A stretch of DNA of 64,000 nt from Bacteroidetes/Chlorobi group bacterium MS-B_bin-24 (GCA_003731685.1 RCNO01000005.1:980-64979), one strand, 5' to 3'; shown: positions 7,075-61,124, counted from the stretch's first letter. Notes: generated by a model not told the origin, from the sequence alone. Made by a program: numbers and translations.

Positions 7075-7107
7075 AGACATCGGATGTTTCGAAAACATCC
7101 GATGTCT
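7075..7107. repeat. 33-bp palindromic intergenic repeat, copy 1 (loop CGA)
   Basis: AGACATCGGATGTTT-CGA-AAACATCCGATGTCT. The 15-nt arms are perfectly complementary and identical to the other copies. Confidence 0.95.
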
Positions 7108-7320
7108 GGGGAAGTGAAGATATTTGGCATATGCGAAATATCGAATTTCTGCTAAGTCCAATATCTTGTTCTTATCTTTCTAAATTTTTGTGCATTTTCT
7201 GGTGCCCTATGCTTGTCTTTTGAAAGTAAAGAAGGCAACTCTTTTTCTGTTGAGCAATTTGGAATAAAATTATACTCAGATTTTTTAAATTTGTGTTTTC
7301 TAAATTTTTTAGGACCGGAT

Positions 7321-9126
7321 ATGCAAACTAAATTGAAGATATTTTTCTTGATTGCACTGCTTGTGGGGTGGAATAATTTATTAGCGGAAGATTATATATT
7401 AGTAAATGTTTCGGATTTATACGATGTTATGCCCGATGTAGCTAATTGCAACGAAGGAGTTCTGAAAAACTCCGAAAAGCAAAAGGCATTGGACGCTTTT
7501 AACTATATTCGCACAATTCACAACTTGAAGCCAGTTCAATATAACTCATCTTACGATAAAGAAGTTGCCAAAAGTGCTTTGATAACTGTTGCCAATGCTT
7601 TGCTCGACCATTTCCCCAAGTCTTCTTATTATTGCTACACTCAGGATGGATATAATGGAAGCTCAACCTCGAATCTATATATTTTTGCTTCGCCATCGCC
7701 TTCCTATGCTCCGGAGACAGAAAAGGGGATTCAAGGTTGGATTATCGATAAAAATGTTGCCGATGTTGGTCACCGACGCAGTATGCTGAACCCATTTTTG
7801 AAATACACTTCGTTTGGGCGTGTCGATGGTTGCTCCAAAACCCAAACTAATTATTTTATAACTGGTATGTCGCTAAAAGTTCATATGTTCCCCGATTATC
7901 ATAATCTTTCCGATTGGCAAGGCGATTTTGTTGCATATCCTGTAAACGATTATCCCACTGCATTTTTTGATGGCTCTTGGTACCTTTCGTTCACTGTTAT
8001 TGCCGATAAATCCTCGCCTTGGAATAATAATAACACAATAATCGATTTTTCTCAGGCAACTGTGAAAATAACCGACCCCGGGAACAATGCACTTTCGATT
8101 TCTGATTTAAAATACGATTATCTTGGCTATGGTGTTCCAAATTGTTTGTATTGGAAAGCTTCCACTATATTGAAGGAAGTGAAATATACCGTGACAATCT
8201 CGAATGTGAAAGTAAACGGCACCCCACGAACTTATACATATTGGTTCAGAATTACGGACACTCCACCAAATACAACTTTACAGCCACCAACGCCACTTTC
8301 GCCGCCCGACAATTCGAACGAACTTGTTCCACCTGTTACTTTAACTTGGACTTCCATTGTTGATGCTCAATACTATGCCCTACAAGTTTCAACAAATTCC
8401 AACTTTTCCACTTTGCTTGTTGATTTGAAAAATTTGACCAATAATCAATACACTTTAACTGAACTTTCGCCAAAAACCAAATATTACTGGCGAGTTGCAG
8501 TGATCAAAAATCAACAGCAAAGTGGATGGTCTACTACGTTTTCTTTTACAACAGCAGACCAACCCCTTGCCACTCCATTGTTGCTTGAGCCGAAAGATTC
8601 CACCGTTAGTGTGTCGATTCAACCTACTTTTGTCTGGAATTCTGTTCCCGGAGCGACCAAATACCACTTGCAAGCAAGTTTAGACCCTTCGTTCGACGAT
8701 TTCTCGCTTTTGCTTAATTTGGACGATATTTCGAATACCTCTTATACATCAACTGTGAAATTTTATCCGAAAACACAGTTTTATTGGAGAGTCCGAGCCT
8801 TGAACAATACCCAATCGAGTCCTTGGTCTGCCGTTCGAACATTTTGGACTCTCGACCCAGCTTTCGTTTCCGACATCTCGTTTTCTACCGAAGGCAATTT
8901 CGTAGTTGCCAGCAAACAAACATCCGCAATTAATCTTAGAGAATCGCTTTTTGCAAAGAAAATTGCTTTATACGACTTGTTTGGGAACGAAATGGTGTTA
9001 GCTTTATCTCCGCGTGAACTTGAAAAGATTGAAATTCCTTTTGAGCAAATAAATTCCGGAGTTTGGATTCTTGAAATAACAACATCTACCGAGGTAAAGC
9101 GTTTTAAACTTTTTATTATTATATGA
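7321..9126 (+). CDS. secreted CAP/SCP (YkwD-like) domain protein with two FN3-like modules and a T9SS C-terminal sorting domain
   Basis: The ATG at 7321 exposes the signal peptide MQTKLKIFFLIALLVGWNNLLA, whereas the track ORF starts at a TTG at 7213. It has the CAP-type motif GHRRSMLNPFLKYTSFG. Two ~90-aa repeats end YYWRV...WS..F.FTT and FYWRVRA...SPWS. The C-terminal beta-sandwich tail is ALYDLFGNEMV...GVWILEITT. Confidence 0.7.
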   Translation: MQTKLKIFFLIALLVGWNNLLAEDYILVNVSDLYDVMPDVANCNEGVLKNSEKQKALDAFNYIRTIHNLKPVQYNSSYDKEVAKSALITVANALLDHFPKSSYYCYTQDGYNGSSTSNLYIFASPSPSYAPETEKGIQGWIIDKNVADVGHRRSMLNPFLKYTSFGRVDGCSKTQTNYFITGMSLKVHMFPDYHNLSDWQGDFVAYPVNDYPTAFFDGSWYLSFTVIADKSSPWNNNNTIIDFSQATVKITDPGNNALSISDLKYDYLGYGVPNCLYWKASTILKEVKYTVTISNVKVNGTPRTYTYWFRITDTPPNTTLQPPTPLSPPDNSNELVPPVTLTWTSIVDAQYYALQVSTNSNFSTLLVDLKNLTNNQYTLTELSPKTKYYWRVAVIKNQQQSGWSTTFSFTTADQPLATPLLLEPKDSTVSVSIQPTFVWNSVPGATKYHLQASLDPSFDDFSLLLNLDDISNTSYTSTVKFYPKTQFYWRVRALNNTQSSPWSAVRTFWTLDPAFVSDISFSTEGNFVVASKQTSAINLRESLFAKKIALYDLFGNEMVLALSPRELEKIEIPFEQINSGVWILEITTSTEVKRFKLFIII

Positions 9127-9136
9127 TAGAGTAATT

Positions 9137-9802
9137 TTGGCTGAGCAAGAAAAAGATAGTTTAATTAAAATCCTCCAATCGCTGCGTAGAGATTATATTT
9201 CGGGCAAATTCGATGAATCGGTTGCCCACGAAAATCCTTTCGAGCAGTTCCGCCTGTGGTTTCTCGAAGTTCTTTCGAGCGACTTTGTCGAGCCAAACGC
9301 AATGGTGCTTTCAACTGCAAGCAAGGATGGAATACCATCGTCGAGAGTTGTCCTTTTGAAAAAATTCGACGATAAAGGTTTTGCGTTCTATACAAATTAC
9401 CAAAGCAAAAAAGGGAAAGATTTGGCGGAAAATCCTTATGCCTCTTTGCTATTCTATTGGGATAAACTCGAACGGCAAGTTCGTATTAATGGAAGAGTGG
9501 AAAAGACGAGTTTCGAGGAGTCGGAGGAGTATTTTAAATCTCGTCCTTATTTATCAAGGATTGGGGCTTGGGCTTCGAAGCAAAGTTCGCCGCTGCGCTC
9601 CCGCTTTACTTTGATGCGTGAAGTTGCACTTCTGACAATGAAATATCCTGTTGATGTTCCTTTGCCGCCTTTTTGGGGGGGATATCGGTTGATTCCCGAT
9701 TTCTTCGAGTTCTGGCAAGGGCGCCCCAGCCGTCTTCACGACCGAATCGCCTACATTTTGCAACCCGACGGCAAATGGAAGAAACAAAGGCTCTACCCAT
9801 AG
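9137..9802 (+). CDS. pdxH: pyridoxamine 5'-phosphate oxidase
   Basis: 221 aa with a TTG start. Motifs: NAMVLSTASKDGIPSSRVVLLK, FYTNYQSKKG, WGGYRLIPDFFEFWQGRPSRLHDR, and the classic C-terminus ...RLYP. Confidence 0.93.
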   Translation: MAEQEKDSLIKILQSLRRDYISGKFDESVAHENPFEQFRLWFLEVLSSDFVEPNAMVLSTASKDGIPSSRVVLLKKFDDKGFAFYTNYQSKKGKDLAENPYASLLFYWDKLERQVRINGRVEKTSFEESEEYFKSRPYLSRIGAWASKQSSPLRSRFTLMREVALLTMKYPVDVPLPPFWGGYRLIPDFFEFWQGRPSRLHDRIAYILQPDGKWKKQRLYP

Positions 9803-9837
9803 AATTTTTCTACCAACTTTACTTCTAACCTTAACAA

Positions 9838-9870
9838 AGACATCGGATGTTTTCAAAACATCCGATGTCT
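9838..9870. repeat. 33-bp palindromic intergenic repeat, copy 2 (loop TCA)
   Basis: AGACATCGGATGTTT-TCA-AAACATCCGATGTCT. It lies between the convergent pdxH and MBL-hydrolase genes. Confidence 0.95.
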
Positions 9871-9901
9871 GGAGAGAGTTACTTACGATGGAAAAGCATT
9901 T

Positions 9902-10681
9902 CTATGTGTAGAGTGTAAGCCCGTCGTAGGTTAGGTAGAAGCCTTCGGGCAGTTCCTTTTCGCATTGTGAATGAAGAATTTGGTGAGCAATATGGATGAA
10001 GTATGTTTTTCGGGCATTTATTTTTTGGGAGACTTCGATTGCCTTGTTTAGATTGAAGTGGGTAGAATGGGGTTCGTAGCGGAGTGCATCGAGAATGAGA
10101 ATTTCGAGCCCCTGCATTTTGTCAATCGTTGTTTCGGGAATGAAATTTGTATCAGTGCAATAAGCTAAGTTTCCGATACGGAATCCAAGCACTGGCATTT
10201 TGCCGTGAAGCAAAGGCAATGGCTCGAAAGTGATATCGCCAATCGTAAATGGTGCTTCGTCAATGATGTTGATGTCCAAAATGGGAATTCCGCCGCCAAT
10301 TTGTTCGGGTTCCTCGAAGATATAGAAAAAAGTACGTTTGATTCTTTCAATCGTTTGGAGATTTGCAAAGATGCGGACAGCTTTTTTGGTTGTATAATTA
10401 TAGGCTCTTAAATCATCGAGTCCGCCGATGTGGTCGAAATGGGCGTGGGTAAAAACGACTGCGTCGAGGCGGTCGATGTTGTACAAAAGCATTTGCTGAC
10501 GAAAGTCTGGTGTTGTATCAATCACAACATTTGTAGTTTCGGATTGCACAAGGAGCGAGGTCCGTAATCGCTTGTCCCTCTTATCTGTTGATATACACGT
10601 AGGACATTTGCAGGAAACTGTTGGAACACCCGAGGATGTTCCGCTCCCAAGCACGGTAAACTTAAGTCCATTAGACGACAT
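9902..10681 (-). CDS. MBL-fold metallo-hydrolase (PhnP/GPMB-like)
   Basis: Metal motif [15 protein letters not shown]. The start was moved to [20 protein letters not shown] (ATG 10681). The track extension to 10753 overlaps lipA. Confidence 0.8.
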
Positions 10682-11555
10682 GACTTTCGGCGTGGTATGA
10701 ACTTCGCACAAGTGGTCCGGATTCCACGTGACGGAATCCCAGCTCAATACCAATCAATTTGTATTGCTTAAATTCTTCGGGGGTGACGAAACGGTCGACA
10801 GGCAAATGGGCAGGCGTAGGTTGCAGATATTGTCCGATTGTAAAAATATCGACATCGATTTGCCGAAGGTCTTTCATCACTTGAACAACTTCGTCGAAAG
10901 TTTCGCCAATTCCCACCATAATCCCTGTTTTGGTAATAAATCCTTGTTCTTTTGAATATTGCAGAACTCTTAAGGAACGCTCGTATTTTGCCTGTGGTCG
11001 AACTGTTCGATATAAACGGGGGACAGTTTCAACGTTATGGTTCAGAATATTTGGTTTAGCGTCGAGCACTCTTTGCAAGCAATTCAAATCGCCTTTGAAA
11101 TCGGGAATTAGCACTTCAATCGAAACTTTTGGATTAAGCCTTCGAACTTCTACGATAGTTTTTGCCCAAATCGTTGAACCTTGGTCGGGAAGTTCATCCC
11201 GGTTTACAGAAGTAATGACCACGTGGGAAATTCCCATTTGCTGCACAGCCAGAGCAACTTTCAAAGGCTCCTCGGGGTCGACCGGCTGCGGTCGACCTGT
11301 TTTTATTGCACAAAATCCACAGGAGCGAGTGCAAATATCACCAAGAATAAGGAAAGTTGCGGTGCCTCGTCCCCAGCATTCCCCGATGTTAGGACAATGG
11401 GCTTCTTCGCAAACAGTGTGTAAAGTTTTCGAACGCATCATCTTTTTAAGATTGGCGTAAGTTTCGCCTCCAGGAGCGCGCACTTTAAGCCATTCAGGAC
11501 GAGGAGACTTCTGTCCTTGTTCTCGCGGGCGTTCAGGATAATCTATTTTATGCAT
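10671..11555 (-). CDS. lipA: lipoyl synthase
   Basis: 294 aa. The radical-SAM cluster is [13 protein letters not shown], with the second cluster motif [14 protein letters not shown]. Confidence 0.95.
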
Positions 11556-11558
11556 TTT

Positions 11559-12419
11559 TTAGCCTAAATATGCTTTCAATTTTTGACAGCGATTGGAGTG
11601 TCGTAGTTTCCGAATTGCTTTCTCTTTGATTTGCCGGACGCGTTCCCGTGTCAAGTTGAATTTTTCGCCGATTTCTTCCAAAGTTAATGCAGATGTGCCA
11701 ATTCCGTAAAAGAGCCTAATGACTTCGGCTTCTCGCTCCGGCAAAGTGGAAAGAAGTTCTTCTATCTCAATTCGTAAAGATTCTTGCATAAGATGCTGGT
11801 CTGGTGGTGGTTGTTGTTCGTTGGGCAAAACATCGAGAAGTCGATTGTCCTCGCCTTGAACAAACGGAGCATCAACCGAAAGATGCCTGCCGGCAATTCT
11901 TATAGTTTCGTGAATATCGGTAACAGACATATCGAGTTGTTCGGCGAGTTCGGAAGTGGTCGGTTCCCGTTCGAACTTTTGTTCGAGCTCGCTGAATTTC
12001 TTGCCAATCTTATTCAAAGCACCGACTCGGTTCAATGGAAGACGAACAATACGGGATTGCTCGGCAAGCGCTTGCAAAATCGATTGCCGTATCCACCACA
12101 CTGCATAAGAAATAAACTTGAAGCCTTTGGTTTCGTCGAATCGTGTTGCTGCTTTAATCAGCCCCAAGTTGCCTTCGTTAATTAGGTCACCAAGCGTTAG
12201 CCCTTGGTTCTGGTATTGCTTAGCAACAGAGACAACAAATCTCAAATTGGCTTTGACAAGCCTCTCCATTGCTTTTTGACCTTCGGGTCCGCCTTTCTTA
12301 ATCTTTTTTGCCAACTCGACTTCTTCTTCGGCAGTTAGCAATTCATATTTACCAATTTCTTGTAAATACTTATCTAAAGACTGACTTTCACGATTAGTAT
12401 ATTGTTTAGTTATCCTCAT
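11559..12419 (-). CDS. rpoD: RNA polymerase sigma-70 family primary-like sigma factor (short form, no region 1.1)
   Basis: 286 aa. Region 2 is [37 protein letters not shown]. Region 4 is [28 protein letters not shown]. The length is typical of Bacteroidetes/Chlorobi sigma-A. Confidence 0.85.
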
Positions 12420-12479
12420 AATTCATAACCAAAGTTTCACATTTATCAAAACTTTTAACGATTGTCTTTTTTTATTATT

Positions 12480-14336: not shown

Positions 14337-14349
14337 TTAATTTATCCCG

Positions 14350-15771: not shown

Positions 15772-15886
15772 TTTGATATTTTTTAAAAATACAAAATTAC
15801 GAAAACGATAAATTGCCTTTTTGATTTTCATTGATTTAAATCTTTTATGAATTTTGTATTTTGAAAATCAATTTTTTGCTTATAAA

Positions 15887-16939
15887 ATGAATTTATCTCG
15901 AAGAGATTTTTTGGTTTTGACTGCTTTGAGCTCAGTTAACACAGCAATTTTAAAATCCCAAAACAAGCTGTCAATGAACAATTCAGCAAAAACAAAGATT
16001 AAACCGGCGAGGCTGAGGAAAAATGACCTTGTAGGTGTTGTTGCTCCCGGGACCGCGGTTCCCGACCCTGACGATATTCTTCGGGCACAGGAAATACTTG
16101 CAAACCTTGAACTTCGATGGAGATTTTCTGAAAGTATTACTCGCGGAACAAATTATCGTTCACGCTCGGTAGGCGAGCGGCTGGATGAACTAATGAAAAT
16201 GTTTACCGACCCTGAAATTCGAGGGATATTTTGTATTCGTGGTGGCTACGGAAGCGCTCAACTTCTCGACAAAATCGATTATTCAATCATTTCAAGCAAT
16301 CCGAAGATTTTTTTAGGTTACAGCGATATTACTGCGTTGCATATTGCAATCAACAAATTTACAGGCTTAATCACTTTTCACGGACCTGTTTTGCTTTCTC
16401 CTTTTACCCCGTATACATTTAACAATCTTAAAAATGTGTTATTTGGTATGTCTGCTGAACCATTAATTCGTAATCCTATTGAAACGAACGCAATTCGAGC
16501 GAGCCACCCCATTAGAACCATAAGAGAAGGAACTGCCGAAGGCATTGTGATTGGTGGAAATCTTTCGATTATTTGCTCTTTGCTTGGGACGCCCTATGAA
16601 TACGACTACAAGGATGCTTTGCTTTTGCTCGAAGATGTTCAAGAGGAACCTTATCGTATTGACAGAATGTTGAATCATCTACGATTGGCTGGCAAACTCA
16701 ACCAAGTTCGAGGAATTGCTTTTGGCGAGTGCAAAGATTGCCTGCCTTCGAGCCCAAGCGTTTGGGATTTTTCTCTTGGCGAAGTTCTGGATTACTACTT
16801 CAAACCTTTAAACGTTCCTTCGTTTTACGGTTTGTGTATTGGGCATACACCTGACCAAGCCACGATTGCTATCGGCGCCAGAGCCATTCTTGATGCAAAA
16901 ACTGGCACCCTCCAGTACCTTGAATCAGTTGTAGATTAA
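15887..16939 (+). CDS. LD-carboxypeptidase (peptidase S66) with a Tat-like signal
   Basis: S66 nucleophile motif FLGYSDITALH. The ATG at 15887 gives MNLSRRDFLVLTALSS, a twin-arginine-like leader. Confidence 0.8.
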   Translation: MNLSRRDFLVLTALSSVNTAILKSQNKLSMNNSAKTKIKPARLRKNDLVGVVAPGTAVPDPDDILRAQEILANLELRWRFSESITRGTNYRSRSVGERLDELMKMFTDPEIRGIFCIRGGYGSAQLLDKIDYSIISSNPKIFLGYSDITALHIAINKFTGLITFHGPVLLSPFTPYTFNNLKNVLFGMSAEPLIRNPIETNAIRASHPIRTIREGTAEGIVIGGNLSIICSLLGTPYEYDYKDALLLLEDVQEEPYRIDRMLNHLRLAGKLNQVRGIAFGECKDCLPSSPSVWDFSLGEVLDYYFKPLNVPSFYGLCIGHTPDQATIAIGARAILDAKTGTLQYLESVVD

Positions 16940-17236: not shown

Positions 17237-17269
17237 AGACATCGGATGTTTGAAAAACATCCGATGTCT
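17237..17269. repeat. 33-bp palindromic intergenic repeat, copy 3 (loop GAA)
   Basis: AGACATCGGATGTTT-GAA-AAACATCCGATGTCT. It lies 46 nt downstream of the fliO stop, between convergent genes. Confidence 0.95.
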
Positions 17270-17314: not shown

Positions 17315-17701
17315 TCAATTTTTGGAGCGTTTAAATGTTTCTTTCAGGAAGTTTTTGAAAGAAAGGTGAGGTTCGCCGAGTTCATCGGATTGAATTGAGG
17401 ATGTTTCGAAATTGCTGGATTGACTTCTTTGGGATGATGATTGCATTACCTTTGTTAAGTCGGCAATTGCAGTAACATTTTGGTCGCTCACACCAATCAA
17501 TATATAATGATTCCCTATCTGAATAATGTAGAGAGAAACCTTGTTTGAAAGTGGCAAACGAGAGACAATTTTAAAATTGACCCCGAGGGAGTGAATTTTT
17601 TTCTGCGTAAGATTTTTTTTAAGAAAATTAGAAAGGAGAAACACCCCGACCACGAACCCCACGACAATCAAGAGAGACTGAAGCAATTCCCCATTGGGCA
17701 T
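17315..17701 (-). CDS. fliO: flagellar biosynthesis protein FliO (tentative)
   Basis: 128 aa with a single N-terminal TM helix. The FliO-like core is KIVSRLPLSNKVSLYIIQIGNHYILIGVSDQNVTAI. It sits directly after fliN. Confidence 0.6.
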   Translation of the reverse strand: MPNGELLQSLLIVVGFVVGVFLLSNFLKKNLTQKKIHSLGVNFKIVSRLPLSNKVSLYIIQIGNHYILIGVSDQNVTAIADLTKVMQSSSQRSQSSNFETSSIQSDELGEPHLSFKNFLKETFKRSKN

Positions 17702-27380: not shown

Positions 27381-28259
27381 CTAAAAAGTTAATGGAACAG
27401 GTTTTTCTCCTGAATAATCATAAAATCCACGACCACTTTTGCGTCCCAAATGTCCAGCAGCCACAAGTTTCTTCAACAGCGGGGCTGGGCGGAATCTTGG
27501 GTCTCCTAAGTCTTGATGAAGGACATTCATAATAGCCAAAGTGGTGTCCAATCCGATCAAGTCGGCAAGGGCGAGTGGACCCATCGGATGCGAAAAGCCT
27601 AATTTTGCAACTTCATCGATGGCATCGACTGTTCCAATGTGCTCCATTACAGCCCAAATAGCTTCGTTGATGAAAGGCATTAAGATTCTGTTTGCAATGA
27701 AGCCCGGATAGTCGTTGGCAAGGACAGGCACTTTCCCCAGCTTTTCGGCAAGGGTTTTAACAGTCTCGTATGTTTCGTCGCTTGTAGCAAGCCCGCGAAT
27801 AACTTCGACCAGACGCATCATTGGGACAGGATTCATAAAATGCATACCAATAACTTTGTCGGGTCGTTTGGTTTTGGCTGCGATTTCGGTGATGGAGATT
27901 GTCGAAGTGTTTGTTGCCAGAATAACTTCGGGGCGAACCAACTGGTCAAGCCCGGCAAAGATTTTGAACTTAAGTTCTTTGTTTTCGCTTACAGCCTCGA
28001 CAACGAAATCGCAATCGGCGCCATCGTTGAAATTGGTTGTTGGGGAAATCCGAGAAAGGGTTTCGGTCATTTGTTGCTCTGTGATTGTGCCTTTTTTCAC
28101 TTGCCTACCCAGATTTTTTTCGATAGTAGCCATTCCGTTTTTTAAAGCGTTTTCGTAAGCATCGCAAAGAACAACATTAAAGCCGAATTGGGCAAAAGTG
28201 TGGGCAATACCATTTCCCATTGTTCCTGCCCCAAGAACCAAAACTTTTTGAATAGCCAT
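27381..28259 (-). CDS. hbd: 3-hydroxybutyryl-CoA dehydrogenase
   Basis: The Rossmann N-terminus [23 protein letters not shown] starts at ATG 28259. Further motifs are [15 protein letters not shown] and [15 protein letters not shown]. Confidence 0.92.
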
Positions 28260-28400
28260 TTTTAAACCTTTTTGTAAAACAAACAATTTCAAAATAGTAA
28301 AAGTATGAAAAAAAACAAAAATAAAAGAAAAACATTTTCAATACAGAATAAATTTTCTAATTTTAAATGTGATTTTTGTGGAAAAATAAGAATCTGCTTA

Positions 28401-28428
28401 GTAGGGGCGAATAATTATTCACCCCTAC
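28401..28428. other. GC-clamped hairpin in a long non-coding region
   Basis: GTAGGGG-C-GAATAATTATTC-A-CCCCTAC. The outer stem is 7 bp and the inner 12-nt segment is self-complementary. There is a single copy in this window. Confidence 0.6.
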
Positions 28429-28498: not shown

Positions 28499-28531
28499 AG
28501 ACATCGAATGTTTTCGAAACATCCGATGTCT
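28499..28531. repeat. 33-bp palindromic intergenic repeat, copy 4 (loop TCG, one arm mismatch)
   Basis: AGACATCGAATGTTT-TCG-AAACATCCGATGTCT. It lies in the divergent hbd/pheT intergenic region. Confidence 0.9.
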
Positions 28532-28930: not shown

Positions 28931-31348
28931 ATGAAAATTTCGTTAAATCTTTTGAGACAATTCGTTGATATACCGACGGATTCGACGGAAATCTCCAATG
29001 TTTTGACCTCGCTTGGCTTCGAGGTTGAAGAAATTTTCGATTTGAACGAGAAATATAAAAATTTTGTTGTCGGGGAAGTTAAATCCTGCGAAAAAGTTAC
29101 CGAAAAGCTATCTTTTTGCCGAGTTACCGACGGGGCGAATGTTGTTGATGTTATCTGTGGTGCTCCTAACGTTGCCCAAGGGCAAAAGGTTGTGCTTGCT
29201 CTTCCTGGGGCAGTTATTCCAAAAAATAAATTGGAAATAAAACCAACCGTTATACGGGGTATAAATTCGACGGGAATGATTTGCAGTGAAGATGAGTTGG
29301 AAATTGGGGATTGTGCCGATAAGATTTTGGTTCTGCCTTTGGATGCACCGGTTGGAATCCCGTTTGCGAATTACTTTGAGCTGAACGATGTTGTGTATGA
29401 AATTGCAATTACACCAAATCGAGGCGATTGTTTAAGTCATTTGGGCATCGCTCGCGAGCTTTCGGCGTATTATCATCGACCTTTGAAAGTTCCAGCAATA
29501 GATTTTGAGGAAGATGAAAAAAGCAATATCGGCGAGTTTGTAGAAGTTGAAGTTCTGGACAGCGAAAAGTGTCCTCGCTATTCTGCTCGGGTAGTTTGCG
29601 ATGTAGAAGTGGTCGAATCTCCGCAATGGATGAAATCAAAACTTATTGCACTGGGGCTAAGACCAATTAACGCTGTGGTAGATGTAACGAATTATGTAAT
29701 GATGGAGTTGGGGCAGCCATTGCACGCATTTGACTACGATAGGCTGACAGGGAAGAAAATCATTGTTCGGACAGCAAGCGAGGGCGAAAAATTTGTAACT
29801 TTGGATGGCAAAGAAAGGGAATTGGATTCGACGATGCTAATGATTTGCGATGCCAACCGACCTGTGGCAATTGGTGGAGTGATGGGCGGCGAAAATAGCG
29901 AAATCACCAAAGAAACGAGGAATGTGTTTCTGGAATCTGCTTTCTTTAGCCCTACATCAATTAGAAGAACCTCGAAGAAATTGGGTTTGGTAAGCGAATC
30001 ATCATATAGATTCGAGCGTGGAGTCGATTATGGCAATGTCGTTTTTGCTTTAAACAGAGCAGCGCAACTTATCGCTCGCCTTACAAATGGTAAAATCGTT
30101 AAAGATTATATTGATGTTTATCCTAAAAAGATTGAAAATAAATATATTCCTTTGAGATTTCAAAGAGTGAATTGGGTGCTGGGAATTGATATAGAAAAGG
30201 AAAGAATTGTCAACATATTGACTGGATTGGGGTTTAAAATTTTTGAACAGGATGGAGATAAGGTTGTATTCCAAGTTCCCACCCACCGATTCGATGTTGA
30301 ACAGGAAATTGATTTAATTGAAGAAATCGCTCGTTTCGTTGGTTACGATAATATTCCCGAAGACCGAAGTTACTCGATAACATTTTCGGGAGAGAAACAA
30401 AAGACACCGCTCGATGTTCCCGAAGTTAGGCAGGAAATTAAAAATTACTTTGTTTTCAATGGTTTTCAAGAGATTCTGACCCAAAATTTGTATAACCCGA
30501 ATAAGATGCGTTTGTTTTGCGATGGAGAGTTTATAGAAATTGCGAATCCTTTGGGCGAAGAATACTCAATTGTTCGGGCGAGTTCGTTGGCACCAGTGCT
30601 CGAAGTTGCGAAATATAACATCAACATTGGGCGAAAAGATTTCAGAATCTTTGAAATTGGTAAAGAATTTCGCAAGAACAACACAAGTCAGGGATTTATA
30701 GAAGGCATCGAAGAAAAAGAAGTCCTGTCGATTGCAGTTAGTGGCTTGTCCTCCCCATTACAATGGGGGGAAACAACACGACTTGTCGATTTCTACGACA
30801 TTAAAGGCATATTTGAACATTTCCTCTCTACTTTTTCGGTGGTAAATTTTGAAATCGAACCTACAAAGCATCCCAATAGCATATTTGGAAGCGAAGCAGG
30901 TATAATTAAAATCGATGGCGGAGTGGAAGGGGAATTCGGCGTGGTTTCGAAGGAGCTTAAAAAGGTTTTCGACATTGACCAAAACTTGTATTTTGGCTAT
31001 TTGAATCTGAGATGGTTGTATTCCTTCACAAGGAAATTGTCGAAATATGCAAAGATTTCGCCTTTCCCTGTTGTTCGCCGAGACCTTGCATTTGTGGTTG
31101 ACGAGGGAATTCCCGCAGGCGAGATTTTGGAACTCATTTGGAAAACTGGTGGCGACTTCCTTCGCAATGTCGTTATTTTTGATGTTTACAAAGGTAAAAA
31201 TATTGGCTCGGGCAAAAAGAATCTTGCCTTTGCACTGTTTTTCAACTCAAACGAGAGAACATTGACCGAAGAGGAAGTTAACGCTTGGATACAGCGGATT
31301 GTCGAAACAATCCAAACCCTGAAGGGCGCCGAACTACGCGTATTTTGA
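28931..31348 (+). CDS. pheT: phenylalanine--tRNA ligase beta subunit
   Basis: 805 aa. The N-terminus is MKISLNLLRQFVDI. It has a tRNA-binding domain, B3/4 and B5 domains, and the C-terminal FDX-ACB motif ISPFPVVRRDLAFVV. Confidence 0.95.
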   Translation: MKISLNLLRQFVDIPTDSTEISNVLTSLGFEVEEIFDLNEKYKNFVVGEVKSCEKVTEKLSFCRVTDGANVVDVICGAPNVAQGQKVVLALPGAVIPKNKLEIKPTVIRGINSTGMICSEDELEIGDCADKILVLPLDAPVGIPFANYFELNDVVYEIAITPNRGDCLSHLGIARELSAYYHRPLKVPAIDFEEDEKSNIGEFVEVEVLDSEKCPRYSARVVCDVEVVESPQWMKSKLIALGLRPINAVVDVTNYVMMELGQPLHAFDYDRLTGKKIIVRTASEGEKFVTLDGKERELDSTMLMICDANRPVAIGGVMGGENSEITKETRNVFLESAFFSPTSIRRTSKKLGLVSESSYRFERGVDYGNVVFALNRAAQLIARLTNGKIVKDYIDVYPKKIENKYIPLRFQRVNWVLGIDIEKERIVNILTGLGFKIFEQDGDKVVFQVPTHRFDVEQEIDLIEEIARFVGYDNIPEDRSYSITFSGEKQKTPLDVPEVRQEIKNYFVFNGFQEILTQNLYNPNKMRLFCDGEFIEIANPLGEEYSIVRASSLAPVLEVAKYNINIGRKDFRIFEIGKEFRKNNTSQGFIEGIEEKEVLSIAVSGLSSPLQWGETTRLVDFYDIKGIFEHFLSTFSVVNFEIEPTKHPNSIFGSEAGIIKIDGGVEGEFGVVSKELKKVFDIDQNLYFGYLNLRWLYSFTRKLSKYAKISPFPVVRRDLAFVVDEGIPAGEILELIWKTGGDFLRNVVIFDVYKGKNIGSGKKNLAFALFFNSNERTLTEEEVNAWIQRIVETIQTLKGAELRVF

Positions 31349-50056: not shown

Positions 50057-50149
50057 AGCCATAAACTTGTGAACAATCAGATGTCGAATGTTCCAGATGA
50101 ATTTGACAAATGAAGAATGAAGGGAATGTGGCTCCATTGATAGGTTTAA

Positions 50150-50183
50150 AGAAATTGGATGTTTCGAAAAATCGATTGTTTCT
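50150..50183. repeat. degenerate copy of the 33-bp palindromic repeat
   Basis: AGAaATtGGATGTTT-CGA-AAAaATCGATTGTTTCT. The left arm has 2 mismatches and the right arm has an indel and substitutions. Confidence 0.6.
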
Positions 50184-50191
50184 GTTTCGCC

Positions 50192-50224
50192 AGACATCCG
50201 ATGTTTCGCAAACGCCCGATTTCT
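50192..50224. repeat. degenerate copy of the 33-bp palindromic repeat
   Basis: AGACATCcGATGTTT-CGC-AAACgcCCGATtTCT. It has the same 15-3-15 layout with 4 substitutions. Confidence 0.7.
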
Positions 50225-50335
50225 TTCAAGATAAAGTAAGGGATGGTAACTTCAGATGGAAAATGTATGGTAGATAGTTGCACATTGGACTGTTACTCTT
50301 TGACAAAGCAATTAAGATAACATCCCTGCCGAAAA

Positions 50336-50368
50336 TTGCATCGGATGTTTCGTGCACATCCAATGCCT
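50336..50368. repeat. degenerate copy of the 33-bp palindromic repeat
   Basis: ttgCATCGGATGTTT-CGT-gcACATCCaATGcCT. The core CATCGGATGTTT / ACATCC is retained. Confidence 0.55.
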
Positions 50369-50418
50369 GACAACCCCCTCCAAACCTATAAATATAATTT
50401 GGTCGATTAACTTTTGAT

Positions 50419-53046: not shown

Positions 53047-54135
53047 ATGAAGTTAACAATTTTCAATGCAATCCACAAGGAACTCGGGGCCAAAATGGTT
53101 GAATTTGCTGGATTTGAAATGCCAATCCAGTATAAAAACGGAATAATTTTCGAGCATAAGGCTGTTCGAACCAGTGTCGGTGTTTTCGATGTTTCGCATA
53201 TGGGCGAATTTGAAATTTCCGGTCCCGACGCACTTGCTTTTGTACAGAAAGTTACCACAAACGATGCAAGTAAACTTTTCCCGGGCAAAGTTCAATATTC
53301 CGCAATGTGTTATCATCACGGCGGAATTGTCGACGATTTACTCGTTTACCGCTTGGATGAAAACAAATTTATGTTTGTGGTCAATGCTGCAAATATTGAA
53401 AAGGATTTCAATTGGTGTTTGGAAAATGCCAAAGATTTTGATGTACAACTGAAAAATATCAGCGATGAAATTAATCTTTTGGCTGTGCAAGGACCGAATT
53501 CGCTTAAAACATTGCAAAAGTTGACCGATACGGATTTGAATTCGATGAAGTATTACACTTTTCAAAATGGTAAACTTGCCGATGTCGATATGATTATCTC
53601 CCGAACAGGTTACACAGGTGAATTGGGATTTGAATTGTACTTCCGAGGCGTTTTTTCCGTAGCCAAACACGTTTGGGATGCAATATTCGAGGCTGGTAAG
53701 GAGTTCAACATTGAGCCAGTGGGACTTGGTTGTCGCGATACTTTGAGGTTGGAAAAAGGATATTGCCTTTATGGGAATGATATTGATGAGACAACGAATC
53801 CAATCGAGGCTGGTTTGGGCTGGATTACTAAGCTGGAAAAAGGACCTTTCAACGGTTCCGAAGTCATTGCAAAAGTAAAAGAAGAAGGACCACGCCGCCG
53901 TCTTGTCGGTTTTGTATCGGATGAAAACCGCTTCATTCCCAGACATAACTACAAGATATATTCTCAAGGTAAGGAAATCGGCTATGTTACGAGCGGGAAC
54001 ATTTCGCCGATGCTCGAAAAACCAATTGGTATGGGTTATGTGCAAACGGAATTTTCGAACGAAGGCACCGAAATTCAGATAGAATCCCGAGGCAAACTCT
54101 TTGCCGCAAAAGTTGTTAAACTGCCTTTTGTTTAA
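53047..54135 (+). CDS. gcvT: glycine cleavage system aminomethyltransferase (T protein)
   Basis: 362 aa. Motifs [41 protein letters not shown]. Confidence 0.95.
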
Positions 54136-54277
54136 TTTTTGAACAAATTGTTCGAGTTTAATTTCGTTTGATATAAAAAAAGTATATTGTAAGCAAATTA
54201 GGCGATAACAAAGTTTTGAAAGACAACATAGATTTGCCTAATTATTTAAAATTTATTAATTTTGCAATTGATTATAT

Positions 54278-54351
54278 GGCGAGCTTAGCTCAGTTGGGAG
54301 AGCATCAGATTGTGGCTCTGAGGGTCACGGGTTCGAGCCCCGTAGCTCGCC
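54278..54351 (+). tRNA. tRNA-His (anticodon GTG) with a genome-encoded G-1
   Basis: Hand-folded cloverleaf. G-1 pairs with C73. The acceptor stem is GCGAGCT/AGCTCGC and the D stem is GCTC/GAGC. The anticodon stem is TCAGA/TCTGA with loop TTGTGGC. The T stem is ACGGG/CCCGT with loop TTCGAGC. The 3' CCA is not encoded (the sequence continues CAAAA). Confidence 0.9.
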
Positions 54352-54418
54352 CAAAATCCCACTTTTAATTTCAAACATTTCTTAATTTTGTAATTCTTTA
54401 AATAATTGGGTTAGGATT

Positions 54419-56458: not shown

Positions 56459-56462
56459 TTAT

Positions 56463-57149
56463 ATGACTGCGATTAAAAAAAGTTTAGTTCTTCTTTTCTT
56501 GCCCTTTTATATTCTTTTCGGGGAAGTTGACTCATTGTCGACTTCCCCAAGTTCTTTTTTTATTTCCATTTCTGCTTATGGTAGCGGTGGATTGAATATC
56601 GTAACCGCACCATCACGGGAAAATGTGCTCTCATTTAATCCGATTCCATCTGTATTTGCAGCATTTCAGAAAATACTTAATGATACTTCGCATACTACAT
56701 TGGGAGTTCAAGCGGGATTTCTTTCACAGGTCTTCAAAATAAAATCGCAAAATTTGGCTACTGAATTCTTATCTTCGAGCAATTCATTCGATTTTACGAT
56801 TAATTACTTGTCGCTTGATGTTCTTTTCAGCACTTTTGGCATCACTTTCGGTTTTGGATACAAGTATCCTGTTGGTGGCAAGTTCAAGAGTGAAATCCCT
56901 ACTGAAAATCTTGCTTCGGTGTTCGATTGCTTGCTGGGGTATTCTTTCAATCTTTACTCCGATGAAGAAAATTCAATTTGTGCGAGTTTCCTTTTACGCT
57001 ATCCTTTGAAAAAGATTTACAAAAACTATCCTGAAAGCGACCCAGTGCTTTCTTTCGAAAATGTCGCACAGAAACAAAATATAGCGAACAAGCATAATCC
57101 TGCTATTCTTTGGTTTGGCTTTGGAATTATTTACAGATATAGTTTCTGA
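56463..57149 (+). CDS. hypothetical outer-membrane beta-barrel-like protein
   Basis: ATG 56463 gives MTAIKKSLVLLFLPFYILFG. The sequence has amphipathic beta periodicity and ends in aromatic residues (...IIYRYSF). The ATGA overlaps the next gene. Confidence 0.45.
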   Translation: MTAIKKSLVLLFLPFYILFGEVDSLSTSPSSFFISISAYGSGGLNIVTAPSRENVLSFNPIPSVFAAFQKILNDTSHTTLGVQAGFLSQVFKIKSQNLATEFLSSSNSFDFTINYLSLDVLFSTFGITFGFGYKYPVGGKFKSEIPTENLASVFDCLLGYSFNLYSDEENSICASFLLRYPLKKIYKNYPESDPVLSFENVAQKQNIANKHNPAILWFGFGIIYRYSF

Positions 57150-58480
57150 TGAGATTGCATTTCCTTCTTTTGCTTTTATTTCCCCATTTTTCTTGGGTTT
57201 TAGCACAGGAAAATAAAGCCAGCCTTTCGTCCCTTCCCGATTTTTCGAAACCTGTTATAAGATTTATCAGAGTTTATGGTGAGAAAAGCGAACTCGACCC
57301 ACCAGTAATTGTCGTTGGCGATGAGAGAACCGCAGTTTCCACAGGATTGAGAAGCGACAAAATCGTTATTGAATTCGACGTTGCGAGCAAAGTTCCGCCA
57401 AGCCTCTTTGCACGTTTTGTGCATTGCTCTTACGATTGGAAAGAGGATGAAAACATCTTTATCAACGAGGCAACTGCGTACCGAACAAGCAATATTTTCT
57501 GGGAGTCAGCCCCGATTAGTTCAAAATATTACAACTTTCGTGGAAAAATTATCATTCCAAACGAGCAGGTGAAATTTAAATACTCGGGCAACTGGAAGGT
57601 AAAATTGTTCGATTATTCCGAGCCCGATGTAGTTTTGGCAGAAGCCCGCTTCTTTGTTGTCAATCCAATCGCAAATGTAGAAATGCGTTTCTATTCCGAC
57701 TTTTACAAGCCCGAACGAAACGTAACAGCATCGGCATACGATATCGAAGTTCTGGTTACCGCCGCAGGTCGTGCCAAGCTAATCGAAAGCTACTTGCATT
57801 CCGTCGTTCTCTACCGAAATCACCGATGGTATGAACCTATTGTTATTTCGATGAATGCTCCATCGACAGATTACTTTAAATATAAATTTTCTACCTCTGT
57901 TTTTGGTTTTGTGTCGAATGGCAAGGTTTTCCGAATCGATGGTGTGCCTGCTGAAAATGGCTATCGTGTTATCGATCTGACGAATCTTGCGTTGTATCCT
58001 TCGATGAATGCACCTGTTCGCCTTCCAATTTCCGATATTCGCCGAAGAGGAAGCTACTTCGAACCGCACGACGATGGTGCGATGATTACAAGTTTTGTAA
58101 GTCCTAATTATGATGATTATGTTTATGTTGAATTTGTTCTGGACCCCGAAGGATGGGAAACAAACGAGGAAGTTTTCCTTGTCGGTTCATTCAACAACTG
58201 GAGACCTTCGAGGGATTGGAGGATGTATTACGACGAGAACGAAAGGATTTTTAAGTTGAGGCAGTGGGTTCGTCGTGCTCGTCATAATTATTTGTATGCA
58301 ACCGGCAGTTTGGGCGACGATGGCAATGTTATTCGTGTGTCCTACGATGAATTCGAAGGGAACACGGTAACAAGTTCCCAAACATTTCTCGCATTTGTGT
58401 ACTACCGCAACCCGGGTTTTGGCGGCTTCGATGAAATCGTAGGTTTTGCCAATGCCTCCTATTTTACTTCCGGGAGGTAA
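57149..58480 (+). CDS. DUF5103 / T9SS plug-protein-like protein (tentative)
   Basis: 443 aa with a signal peptide. The recalled family pattern I..I.vy...PVI...FD....HC..DW...S...Y...PN...SGNW is present (FVHCSYDWKEDE, IPNEQVKFKYSGNWKVKLFD). The length fits the family, and there is a C-terminal CBM48-like segment. It needs HMM confirmation. Confidence 0.45.
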   Translation: MRLHFLLLLLFPHFSWVLAQENKASLSSLPDFSKPVIRFIRVYGEKSELDPPVIVVGDERTAVSTGLRSDKIVIEFDVASKVPPSLFARFVHCSYDWKEDENIFINEATAYRTSNIFWESAPISSKYYNFRGKIIIPNEQVKFKYSGNWKVKLFDYSEPDVVLAEARFFVVNPIANVEMRFYSDFYKPERNVTASAYDIEVLVTAAGRAKLIESYLHSVVLYRNHRWYEPIVISMNAPSTDYFKYKFSTSVFGFVSNGKVFRIDGVPAENGYRVIDLTNLALYPSMNAPVRLPISDIRRRGSYFEPHDDGAMITSFVSPNYDDYVYVEFVLDPEGWETNEEVFLVGSFNNWRPSRDWRMYYDENERIFKLRQWVRRARHNYLYATGSLGDDGNVIRVSYDEFEGNTVTSSQTFLAFVYYRNPGFGGFDEIVGFANASYFTSGR

Positions 58481-58584
58481 GTTTTATGAAATTTTGTAAG
58501 TCAAAATTTTTATTTTTGTATTTTTGATAATTCTATTAATCTTTTGTGCAAAACTTATTTTCAAAACAAAGGAGGGATGAAGAA

Positions 58585-59934
58585 GTGAAAAAAATATTTG
58601 TTCACAGCATTTTGTTTTTCCTTCTTTTAGCGTCGTTTACTGGTTGCAATTTTGAAAGAATGATTAATAAGCTTGCAATGAAAAAAATGGCGCCCCGCAA
58701 GTTATCCATTGAAAATCTACAACTGGAGAAAACGATTTCTAAATGTATTGCTTTGGATACGATTTTAAATACAAACTTTAGAATATCTTTATTGGAAGGG
58801 CTAAATACGTTTATTCCAAGGCCTTTCCCCCTTTGCAAAAAATTTTACTTTGCGGTAAAGGATTCTAATTGTTATCAACTTTTTTTCTATGACCTAACTG
58901 AAAAAACTTTAAGCAAAATCCCACTACTGATAGATTCAAGTGATTTTCAAGAAGATAAAAATACAAAGACTGGGACCGTGGTAGATATTGCTTTAAATGA
59001 AAAATATCTTGTGCTTGCAACCGAAAAAATTGCTTTTGTCTTTTCTCGAAATGATGATAGAACCTTCCGTTATAGGTTTGGCTTTGAAATACCAAGCTCA
59101 ATAAACGGATTCTTTGTAAAAGATGAATATCTCTATCTCGTAGATTTGAGATATTCAAGTAAGGCCAAAAACTCTGAAGGAACGAGGCTCATTATTATTA
59201 ATTTGGTTGAAAAAAAGTTAGTGGGGATTTTACCAATTCCAATAGAACATTTGGAGTTTCTAATCTATGCCCCCAACAAATATTGGGCAGTTAACCTGTC
59301 TCGCAACTTATTTTTGTTAGCAAATCCTTTGAAATTAGAATTTCACATTTATAAATTGAACAATTTTGATTTGGCCTATAGAATCACTGATACAGCGAAT
59401 ATATACTGGAAAGATTTTAAATCTGAATACTACGATACCCTTTGCAAAACAAATAAAGAACTATTGCGTAAAGACACTACAAGAGTACAACCAGCTTCTT
59501 TTATTTACAAACTTGGTAATGTGTTCGATGAAGCTGAAGGTTCGAAAATTGTTTTTGTCGATTTCGTTGATGACACCACTTTTTGGGTAACATACACGAG
59601 CGAAAATCCTAAAATGAAAAAAAATAAAGTTTTCTATTGCGACATTTGGCGGTATGATTTAAGAAGAAATAGTTGGTTTAAACTCGATACAGGCCTTGTT
59701 GATGCACCTCCTGTTGGCAAATTAAAGGCTACAAAGGAAAACTTTTATTTATTGAGCTGGTCATTTCCCCCTTCCTTTTCAGATAAATATATTGCAAATT
59801 TCCAACTTTCTGCCCCTATGGAAATAATGTTACCAAAAGATAACGAAACTTACGAAGAAATTTTTAAGAAACGTGACCAATTTTTCTCGGATAAAGAACC
59901 TTTATGGCAACTTTATATTTACAAGTGGAAATAA
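58585..59934 (+). CDS. hypothetical lipoprotein (beta-propeller-like?)
   Basis: GTG 58585 is preceded by AGGAGG (58570-58575) and gives VKKIFVHSILFFLLLASFTGC, a lipobox. I recognise no catalytic motif. The gene has low G+C. Confidence 0.5.
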   Translation: MKKIFVHSILFFLLLASFTGCNFERMINKLAMKKMAPRKLSIENLQLEKTISKCIALDTILNTNFRISLLEGLNTFIPRPFPLCKKFYFAVKDSNCYQLFFYDLTEKTLSKIPLLIDSSDFQEDKNTKTGTVVDIALNEKYLVLATEKIAFVFSRNDDRTFRYRFGFEIPSSINGFFVKDEYLYLVDLRYSSKAKNSEGTRLIIINLVEKKLVGILPIPIEHLEFLIYAPNKYWAVNLSRNLFLLANPLKLEFHIYKLNNFDLAYRITDTANIYWKDFKSEYYDTLCKTNKELLRKDTTRVQPASFIYKLGNVFDEAEGSKIVFVDFVDDTTFWVTYTSENPKMKKNKVFYCDIWRYDLRRNSWFKLDTGLVDAPPVGKLKATKENFYLLSWSFPPSFSDKYIANFQLSAPMEIMLPKDNETYEEIFKKRDQFFSDKEPLWQLYIYKWK

Positions 59935-59957
59935 CTATTAAAGATTTTTAAAGAATT

Positions 59958-60476
59958 ATGAAATACATAAATTTAGTTTTTCTAGTTTTGCTACTGATAG
60001 GCTGTAAAAGTAATGATTATTTTATTTATGACCTTTCTGGGACAGCCTTTAATGTAAATGATATTTACCAGGAAAGTAACGAATTAATTTTTGTTGTTGT
60101 AGATTTCGTTTCCTGTCACGAATGTTTCATTAATTTATCAAAGTTTTTATCGGACTCTTCATATTTTTTTGAAAGGTCAAAGGTTGTTTTGATTGGGCTA
60201 ACTTCAAATAATTCCGTAGCTGAAAAAAAATTTTATTTGAGAACATTTGAAAAATATTTAGAAAAATATGCACAGAACGCTTTCTTTGTTGCTCGAGATA
60301 ATAATTTTGTAAAAAGTATTATTCCCTGCAATTTGGGTTCACCCAGTTTATTGATTTGGCAAAGAAAGGAAAATAAATTTACATATTTACCCTACAAAGA
60401 ATTATTTGATAGCAACAATTCTAAAATTACAGAATATGCAATAAGAAAATTAAAGAAGATTTTATTAAAAAGCTAA
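59958..60476 (+). CDS. hypothetical lipoprotein with a thioredoxin-fold-like CxxC
   Basis: The lipobox is LLLIGC. The sequence LIFVVVDFVSCHECFINLSKFL matches the beta-strand-CxxC-helix arrangement of TlpA/redoxin proteins. The gene has very low G+C. Confidence 0.4.
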   Translation: MKYINLVFLVLLLIGCKSNDYFIYDLSGTAFNVNDIYQESNELIFVVVDFVSCHECFINLSKFLSDSSYFFERSKVVLIGLTSNNSVAEKKFYLRTFEKYLEKYAQNAFFVARDNNFVKSIIPCNLGSPSLLIWQRKENKFTYLPYKELFDSNNSKITEYAIRKLKKILLKS

Positions 60477-60581
60477 ATTTTTAGTATTTGCACTTTGAAA
60501 TTTGCGTATTAACTGAATTTTTTAATTAAAATAATTCCTCCATATATTCGACAAACAACAATTTGGTTACATTTAGAGAGG

Positions 60582-61055
60582 ATGAAGATGAGTCCGTCGA
60601 TTGCGGAATTAATTCAAACAATGCTTGCCCCAGGGGTAATGGTTTCGGCTTGCTCACTGATGTTGCTTGTTACCAACAATAAGTATTCTGCTGTTGTAGA
60701 TAGGATACGACAATTGAACGAGGAAAAACGAGATTTATCGGAAGGCGTTAGGTCGAATTTGACTAATGAGCAGGTGATTTCTCGCTTGGAGTCCGTAAAA
60801 CAGCAATTGGATTTATTCGAGCGAAGAATCCCATTCATTGTTAGAGCAGTTCTTTCATATACTATTGCCATTGCTCTGTATGTTTTAACATCACTTTTGA
60901 TTGGCTTCAGTTATGCTTTCCATCTTGACCTACGGGCTGAGACCTTTGTTATCTTCCTATTAGGAATGTTTGCTGTGGTAATTGGTAGCATTTACCTGGC
61001 GCGTGAAATCATCTGGGGCTACAAGATTGCTCTGGTCGAAATTAAAAGCTCATAG
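60582..61055 (+). CDS. DUF2721-like membrane protein
   Basis: 157 aa. It has an N-terminal helix LAPGVMVSACSLMLLVTNNKYSAVVDRIRQLNEE, then a charged linker, then two C-terminal TM helices. This is the layout I recall for DUF2721. Confidence 0.5.
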   Translation: MKMSPSIAELIQTMLAPGVMVSACSLMLLVTNNKYSAVVDRIRQLNEEKRDLSEGVRSNLTNEQVISRLESVKQQLDLFERRIPFIVRAVLSYTIAIALYVLTSLLIGFSYAFHLDLRAETFVIFLLGMFAVVIGSIYLAREIIWGYKIALVEIKSS

Positions 61056-61091
61056 ACAACGAAACTCGAAGTGCTTTGGAACAATTTGGAT

Positions 61092-61124
61092 AGACATCGG
61101 ATGTTTGCTAAACATCCGATGTCT
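61092..61124. repeat. 33-bp palindromic intergenic repeat, copy 5 (loop GCT)
   Basis: AGACATCGGATGTTT-GCT-AAACATCCGATGTCT. It lies between the convergent DUF2721 and purD genes. Confidence 0.95.

Follow-up and report, generated by a model that had tools for sequence, protein, structure and literature searches.

Repetitive extragenic palindromes (REPs) are palindromic sequences of 20–40 bp that usually end in GTAG; untagged families exist as well (PMC3733652). In Escherichia coli, a monomer of the transposase TnpA-REP binds the REP hairpin together with its GTAG and cuts at CT dinucleotides, and binding, cleavage and rejoining of the single-stranded repeat have been shown only for this enzyme (PMC3479197). 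Subclass 2.6 of the TnpA-Y1 transposases (Quentin et al. 2018), which corresponds to group 5 of the tyrosine transposases associated with REPs (RAYTs) in Bertels et al. (2017), is found mostly in Bacteroidetes (PMC6006769, PMC5581495). Its members have a mean length of about 179 amino acids and NH[LIV]H, WQ, YIH[QN]NP and SS motifs, and ‘atypical secondary structures’ flank their genes and are present at other places in the genome as well; GT[AG]G is lacking in subclasses 2.6 and 3 alike (PMC6006769). The 16-mers that flank group 5 genes are only moderately repeated (Bertels et al., PMC5581495). Here, we analyze a family of 33-bp palindromes dispersed over a stretch of 64,000 nucleotides from Bacteroidetes/Chlorobi group bacterium MS-B_bin-24 (GCA_003731685.1, RCNO01000005.1:980-64979), hereafter called the window. 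These palindromes are most probably REPs, i.e., the cognate hairpins of a Y1 (HUH) transposase of the RayT/TnpA-REP type that is encoded once elsewhere in the genome, in a REPtron, a gene framed by arrays of its own hairpin. This interpretation is supported by the dispersed intergenic occurrence of the repeat, its compensatory arms, a RayT gene flanked by the hairpin, related enzyme–repeat pairs, copy differences between strains and the presence of decayed copies. A reading of the window made earlier from its sequence only (the sequence-only reading) had preferred protein-recognized hairpins, resembling REPs or bacterial interspersed mosaic elements (BIMEs), to terminators. The flanked RayT, the compensatory arms and more than 185 dispersed copies support that preference.

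Anatomy of the hairpin

A pattern search for AGACATCGGATGTTT-N3-AAACATCCGATGTCT with up to three mismatches returns exactly five matches in the window and none in 100 dinucleotide-preserving shuffles of it. They are the five palindromes that the sequence-only reading had reported, and their arms are indeed identical save for one G>A in a single copy (Table 1). A relaxed one-arm search adds three decayed copies, which share a single intergenic region (50057-50413), lie within 220 bp and look like the remains of an old cluster. The five intact and three decayed copies are all intergenic and, the decayed cluster excepted, they are singletons, with the intact ones spaced 2.7–33 kb apart. Every intact copy has a fold that consists of a 15-bp stem and a 3-nt loop (−15 to −26 kcal/mol; z −3.4 to −6.9). 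Because an alignment of the flanks of the window copies shows no conservation immediately outside the 33-mer, the 33-mer is taken as the repeat unit. The arm itself is nearly palindromic, with an ACATC-S-GATGT core (AGACATC-G-GATGTTT; six out of seven pairs), and the two arms are therefore also direct repeats of each other (12 out of 15 positions), 18 bp apart.

The motif is not confined to the window, since the more than 185 non-redundant copies mentioned above lie on other contigs, from metagenomes and metagenome-assembled genomes (MAGs). Almost all of them are intergenic. The metagenome scan yields at least 114 loci, and 20.5 kb of a single contig (L159) hold 14 copies. The copy statistics given below refer to 185 non-redundant copies, pooled from the window and the other contigs. 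The stem is nearly invariant except for three pairs that vary in a compensatory manner: pair 8/26 (G-C, n = 155; C-G, n = 21), pair 14/20 (T-A, n = 153; C-G, n = 27) and pair 2/32 (G-C, n = 159; A-T, n = 10; C-G, n = 5). The centres of the two arms are complementary to each other in 176 copies. In an alignment of 105 sequences, 96.6% of the stem cells are paired, and cells in which both sides have changed number 49, compared to 7.7 ± 2.3 after shuffling (none out of 500 shuffles reaches 49) and 3–15 in controls with slid partners. As the variable stem positions were wildcards in the searches, their complementarity was not imposed by the search. The GGATG/CATCC noticed earlier in each arm proves incidental, given that the centre pair flips from G-C to C-G in about 12% of the copies. 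The same flip reverses the direction of the site, which rules out a restriction–modification reading of this motif.

The loop differs in every intact copy of the window, as observed before, but it is not free as was then supposed: its first base is A in only two and its third base T in only seven out of 185 copies. The bases that flank the stem are anti-paired (16 Watson–Crick pairs versus 68 expected) and the element therefore has a defined orientation rather than being fully symmetric. The flank consensus reads 5'-TTTYC-hairpin-T(T), with T or A at +1 and almost never a G at −1 or −2; five out of six scorable window copies obey this rule. A related arrangement occurs in a soil Bacteroidetes MAG, in which five 15-mers, AAACATC[G/G/C/T/C]GATGTTT, follow one another at a period of 22 bp between convergent genes (L006 7399-7501). 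Here, the repeat unit seems to be a single self-palindromic arm.

A transposase gene flanked by the same hairpin

A phmmer search seeded with transposase sequences of IS200, IS608 and the E. coli RAYT identified an open reading frame (ORF) for a Y1/HUH transposase of 184 amino acids between two copies of the hairpin (L069:3397-3951). The representative of its 98%-identity cluster, P0001, occurs on four further contigs (L159-L162), which makes five independent contigs in all. On L069, L159, L160 and L161, exact hairpins stand on both sides of the RayT gene, one or two upstream and two to four downstream. The three latter contigs each have two upstream, the downstream number varying by contig, and L162, which is cut upstream of the gene, has two downstream. 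The sequence-only reading had proposed a search for a RAYT flanked by copies of the palindrome; on these related contigs the outcome is positive.

The L069 RayT scores 28 bits against the Pfam profile Y1_Tnp (cut-off 23). Its HuH motif is H54-F-H56 (THFH) and its tyrosine lies in Y125-IHQNP. In an alignment of 42 homologues, H54, H56, Y125, H127, Q128, N129, P130, S145 and S146 are invariant. The AlphaFold model has a pLDDT (predicted local distance difference test) of 91.5, and its top Foldseek match in the PDB is 4ER8, E. coli TnpA-REP with a REP hairpin (E 2.2e-8; template-modelling scores 0.62/0.69), followed by the TnpA structures of ISDra2, IS608 and IS200. Homologues from Kapabacteria and Ignavibacteria MAGs are named ‘REP element-mobilizing transposase RayT’ by the Joint Genome Institute (JGI). 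The organism of the window and the RayT contigs co-occur in two metagenomes (Ga0078972 and 3300060608), and the tetranucleotide usage of RayT contig and window correlates with r 0.976–0.979.

Sibling enzyme–repeat pairs

RayTs that are 66–72% identical to the one of L069 (P0007, P0009, P0011, P0012 and P0004) are each flanked by a different palindrome of their own. These palindromes also have 15-nt arms, which mostly start with AGA and end with TCT, and loops of 1–18 nt (e.g., AGATGGACTCCACCT, ATTCATCGGATGACT and AGATGTCCAACACTT, and AAATGGACTCCACCT with an 18-nt loop). A more distant RayT homologue on L123, which is split and perhaps frameshifted, is flanked by arrays of AGAAATCCGATTTTT-ttc-AAAAATCGGATTTCT (850-1000 and 1810-2040); this palindrome equals the main hairpin with four concerted base changes. 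Each RayT lineage has its own cognate repeat, which points to co-evolution of enzyme and hairpin. Strikingly, every RayT ORF of the lineage also holds its own palindrome in frame; it is placed directly behind the HuH strand (...HFHFLVRVK), within a hypervariable insertion. Examples of the inserts are NSSDDSKSSDEY, KMDITFEVESI and DEPHLEGGVHL. P0001 retains a shortened internal copy, AGACATCGG-gtcttt-CGGATGTCT (QTSGLSDVS), whereas the insertion is missing from homologues at a greater distance.

Copy differences between strains

A comparison of orthologous sites, another check that had been suggested beforehand, revealed one versus three hairpins at two sites in close strains. At site 9838, strains of about 98% identity (L055 275-583, L152) hold three hairpins and some 280 extra bp compared to the one hairpin of the window. 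At site 61092, the count is three hairpins, with 186 extra bp, in one contig (L168, 2011-2229) and one hairpin, as in the window, in six others. At both sites the extra segment is bordered at each end by the resident hairpin, its loop unchanged, and carries a centre-swapped (C..G) hairpin in its middle. No donor copy of either segment was found among the fetched loci. Site 17237 shows no polymorphism, being identical in three strain contigs that stand for 23. Neither does site 28499 (five to six strain contigs), and the same mutated copy is found in L034-L038. Loss is observed as well: where one strain has the full hairpin, another retains only a solo arm after a deletion of exactly 18 bp (L044 1907-1939 versus L043 ~8540 and L052 ~976), consistent with slippage between the two directly repeated arms. 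On L089 (1542-2105), the hairpin is part of a 147-bp unit repeated 3.9 times in tandem with 92% identity, upstream of a gidA-like gene.

Comparison with described systems

The family resembles the E. coli REP/BIME and TnpA-REP system (PMC3479197; PMC6006769) in many respects. Both comprise short multi-copy repeats that lie outside genes and form hairpins, a Y1/HUH gene with arrays of its own repeat on its two sides, and a repeat type per enzyme lineage. The predicted RayT fold is also closest to the E. coli enzyme, the two being only 17% identical over the structural alignment. Unlike E. coli REPs, the present hairpins have no 5' GTAG guide, but a C at −1, T or A at +1 and a T-rich 5' flank; both strands give the same hairpin, and the arms have internal dyad symmetry. 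By its motifs, length and lack of GTAG, the family appears to fit the atypical subclass 2.6 (group 5), from which its HuH and W motifs deviate. Likenesses are the 184 amino acids, YIHQNP, the SS motif after the core, flanking structures without GT[AG]G that have further copies in the genome, and a host of the Fibrobacteres–Chlorobi–Bacteroidetes (FCB) group. Differences are THFH instead of NH[LIV]H, FQ instead of WQ, and a strong, perfect stem where the ‘weaker secondary structure’ of subclass 2.6 is described. With the REPIN–RAYT systems of Pseudomonas (PMC3116915, PMC3337134), the family shares non-autonomous repeats tied to a RAYT, decayed members and copy differences between strains. The RAYTs of Pseudomonas are single-copy and the mobile unit there is an inverted REP doublet (REPIN), whereas here neighbours have the same orientation and many copies are singletons. 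Finally, the subterminal hairpins of IS200/IS605 insertion sequences (IS608, ISDra2) would offer an analogy in that a HUH/Y1 enzyme recognizes a single-stranded hairpin with a short foot flank, with no target-site duplication. Unlike IS200/IS605, the present family has neither a distinguishable left and right end nor a gene carried between two ends as a transposable unit, and its enzyme is nearer to TnpA-REP.

By analogy with E. coli TnpA-REP and IS200/IS605 TnpA (PMC3479197, PMC6006769), the following mechanism may be proposed. In single-stranded DNA, the 15-bp stem would extrude as a hairpin, the foot of which would be bound by RayT. The enzyme would then cut beside the foot via a 5'-phosphotyrosine (Y125) and rejoin strands, and in this way segments bounded by hairpins could be multiplied, deleted or moved. 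Candidate marks of a cleavage or guide site are the conserved, unpaired bases (C at −1 and T at +1) and the foot, AG...CT. Copies would be tolerated by the host mainly at the 3' ends of genes.

Several observations weigh against the REP interpretation. The classical GT[AG]G tag is absent from the 5' foot, the flanks being TTTYC (5') and TT (3'), and the perfect 15-bp stem with its 3-nt loop differs from the imperfect, bulged stem of E. coli REPs. Neighbours no more than 400 bp apart are always co-oriented (37:0) and inverted REPIN doublets are therefore not seen. Orientation relative to local GC skew is 59:61 and carries no signal, while targeting of the lagging strand would predict a bias. 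Loops vary among copies with identical stems, contrary to what simple recent copying predicts, so that one has to assume that the stem is under selection or that the loop is made anew by some process. The 64-kb window holds no RayT homologue, in line with the sequence-only reading, and the case for a common genome of window and P0001 RayT contig is limited to their co-occurrence in two metagenomes and their likeness in tetranucleotide usage. Binding and cleavage of the hairpin by the P0001 RayT are likewise presumed by analogy.

Alternative explanations

The strongest alternative, which we nonetheless consider improbable, is that the palindromes are intrinsic and perhaps bidirectional terminators, or stabilizers of mRNA 3' ends, that were selected for this role and resemble each other through duplication. 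Their hairpins are stable, and in E. coli REPs have an effect on the stability of mRNA. A crude analysis of the ORF context of the oriented copies gives 46 convergent, 38 tandem and 16 divergent settings, with three copies inside an ORF; convergent settings are thus enriched (46 out of 100 oriented non-ORF copies, and three out of five in the window). In the window, the three convergent settings and the divergent one are as described in the sequence-only reading, and the remaining copy lies between tandem ORFs. On the strand defined by the flanks, the stem is followed by one to five T residues, which slightly qualifies the earlier statement that no copy has a T-run. A run of this length is too short for the terminator consensus scan, which calls no palindrome copy. 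The scan does call the canonical G+C-rich hairpin with T-run upstream of the 7.1-kb copy, a terminator that had been pointed out before and is now placed at 6964-6994. Between tandem genes, 18 copies are in sense and 20 in antisense orientation, hence without bias relative to transcription, and the 16 copies between divergent genes include the one at 28499. Simple intrinsic termination is insufficient on these grounds, as was anticipated. Moreover, independent terminators would not share a 30-nt sequence across two phyla (see below), and this explanation leaves the hairpins around the transposase gene unaccounted for.

Less probable still is that the palindromes are double-stranded DNA sites for a dimeric DNA-binding protein, with a dyad like that of an operator in each arm (ACATC-N-GATGT) and two such sites, 18 bp apart, per 33-mer. 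The near-palindromic arm would suit such a role, and so would the five 15-mers of L006 with their regular period and free centre base. Independent dyads do not need the complementarity between arm centres that nearly all copies show, nor the co-variation of pairs 2/32 and 14/20 between arms. Most copies, and the L006 array too, which lies between convergent genes, are situated at the 3' ends of genes. The families that Pfam assigned among 145 neighbouring ORFs were those of unrelated housekeeping genes, none of them enriched, and no gene for a transcription factor is enriched nearby.

Equally hard to sustain is an origin as remnants or ends of another mobile element, such as the terminal repeats of an insertion sequence (IS) or miniature inverted-repeat transposable element (MITE), IS200/IS605-derived palindrome-associated transposable elements (PATEs), solitary repeats of clustered regularly interspaced short palindromic repeats (CRISPR) or excision footprints. 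The dispersed and partly decayed repeats and the tandem arrays in some genomes would be expected of such elements. Directly outside the 33-mer the flanks are unrelated, and the Y1 RayT is the only transposase that recurs nearby; the copies do not represent the termini of an IS or MITE. In addition, none of 2.9 million viral contigs contains a copy, and no Rfam family is found at any copy with gathering or permissive thresholds. A CRISPR array is ruled out by the spacing of the window copies and by the sole regular array (L089), the ‘spacers’ of which are repeated within its 147-bp unit.

Distribution and hosts

The host of the window is a hot-spring Kapaibacteriota-like bacterium. The closest matches of its PheT are in Candidatus Kapaibacterium, with 66% identity, and in Ignavibacteria. 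The organism carries flagellar genes and occurs in JGI metagenomes of the hot-spring type; JGI datasets in which it is present are 3300033886, 3300005452, 3300031783 and Ga0078972. In a collection of species-representative genomes, the hairpin is present in several Bacteroidota-type MAGs (Sphingobacteriales TSM_CSS/CSM, Chitinophagales and others). The same 33-mer is also found between genes in four contigs of two Chloroflexota MAGs, JBFMFT01 and JAHDGV01, with 54–60% G+C. All named relatives of the SppA protein encoded on one of them (L013) are from Chloroflexi/Anaerolineae and this contig is therefore genuinely Chloroflexota; no RayT was seen on the Chloroflexota contigs that bear the 33-mer. 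Palindromes whose loops differ in length were also hit in Patescibacteria, Saccharibacteria and Bradyrhizobium; they were set aside as unrelated or chance hairpins with a common 12-mer arm, those in Bradyrhizobium resembling one orthologous site. In a patescibacterial contig (L004), a Y1 transposase is flanked by a different hairpin, TGTTAAAAGC-TCG-GCTTTTAACA (sites among 2956-2992, 3207-3230 and 3925-3955), and a palindrome of the ACATCGGATGT type with a longer loop (~6–8 nt) lies 260 bp upstream.

A second family of repeats, with a classical GTAG head (GTAGGGGCGACCGG..CGCCCCTAC), occurs in the forms GTAGGGGCGACCGGCCGGTCGCCCCTAC and, as an AT-loop variant, GTAGGGGCGAATAATTATTCGCCCCTAC. Its 24 copies at 18 loci usually lie at a distance of 37–105 bp from AGACATC hairpins, with which they form mosaic clusters that resemble BIMEs. 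Two of them (L061 2978-3003 and 3789-3816) flank a separate Y1_Tnp-like ORF (L061:3029-3778, minus strand).

The hairpin family is previously unlisted, REP/RAYT being already known as a kind of system. Full-text literature searches with the arm sequences and the GTAG-family sequence gave unrelated primers only, and the hairpin sequences are absent from the text and supplements of Quentin et al. 2018 (PMC6006769). Clusters of hairpins are overlaid by spurious ORFs of 100–130 amino acids that form ‘protein families’ in an all-against-all BLAST; such ORFs are likely to give rise to false hypothetical proteins when MAGs are annotated.

Table 1. Coordinates of the putative REP hairpins and associated features. 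Positions without a contig label refer to the window; hairpin strands are assigned from the flanking bases (C at −1 and T at +1).
Feature	Location	Strand	Loop	Setting or remark
Intact hairpin	7075-7107	-	CGA (+ strand)	Tandem + ORFs 4993-6939 / 7213-9126; ~77 nt past canonical terminator 6964-6994
Intact hairpin	9838-9870	-	TCA	Convergent ORFs 9137-9802 (+) / 9902-10753 (-); strain-polymorphic
Intact hairpin	17237-17269	+	GAA	Convergent ORF 15854-16939 (+) / fliO 17315-17701 (-)
Hairpin, one stem mismatch (G>A at 28507)	28499-28531	-	TCG	Divergent ORF 27381-28292 (-) / pheT 28931-31348 (+)
Intact hairpin	61092-61124	ambiguous (flanks T..T)	GCT	Convergent ORF 60582-61055 (+) / purD 61219-62505 (-); strain-polymorphic
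Decayed copy AGAAATTGGATGTTT-CGA-AAAATCGATTGTTTCT	50150-50183		CGA	Relaxed one-arm search
Decayed copy AGACATCCGATGTTT-CGC-AAACGCCCGATTTCT	50192-50224	+	CGC	Fold lost, z-score 0.06
Decayed copy TTGCATCGGATGTTT-CGT-GCACATCCAATGCCT	50336-50368		CGT	Relaxed one-arm search
Classical GTAG-headed REP GTAGGGGCGAATAATTATTCACCCCTAC	28401-28428			Single window copy, 70 nt from 28499 hairpin
Further GTAG-family copy	L076 293-320			
Chloroflexota copy	L013 2000-2032			Identical 33-mer
Chloroflexota copy	L020 4137-4169			Identical 33-mer
Chloroflexota copy	L032 2052-2084			Identical 33-mer
Chloroflexota copy	L030 3780-3812			Identical 33-mer
In-frame palindrome	L163 3197-3229			Within RayT ORF
In-frame palindrome	L157 10197-10229			Within RayT ORF
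In-frame palindrome	L166 323-355			Within RayT ORF
In-frame palindrome	L155 10213-10245			Within RayT ORF
In-frame palindrome	L165 2383-2415			Within RayT ORF
In-frame palindrome	L159 ~10026-10049			Within RayT ORF
Spurious ORF cluster	L076 175-555			
Spurious ORF cluster	L076 4213-4587			
Spurious ORF clusters	L044, L119, L122, others			

Implications for REP–RAYT biology

Beyond the assignment as REPs, we tentatively suggest a wider proposal, which is rather doubtful at present: the family may represent a distinct REP architecture, with a perfect 15-bp stem, an AGA...TCT foot, dyads in the arms and no GTAG, and with a RayT gene that carries its cognate hairpin in frame at a fixed hypervariable site, and its 33-mer may have moved between phyla in hot-spring mats. 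If true, the in-frame cognate hairpin would imply self-targeting or autoregulation of RayT, and the 33-mer in Chloroflexota would represent a transfer of REP–RAYT between phyla, contrary to the prevailing view of mostly vertical inheritance. The general picture of REPs is unchanged. For annotation, the family accounts for a recurrent intergenic palindrome in Kapaibacteriota/Ignavibacteriota bins and for the spurious small ORFs over its clusters. REP–RAYT systems have been well studied only in Proteobacteria; an atypical subclass of the Bacteroidetes type was noted, but its repeats were never characterized. To this subclass, the present family would offer a clean and recognizable repeat, a flank signature and a matched enzyme with a high-confidence predicted structure, along with sibling pairs that differ at few stem positions and natural insertion and deletion polymorphisms. 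It should thereby be useful for understanding how a RayT reads its hairpin without a GTAG guide.

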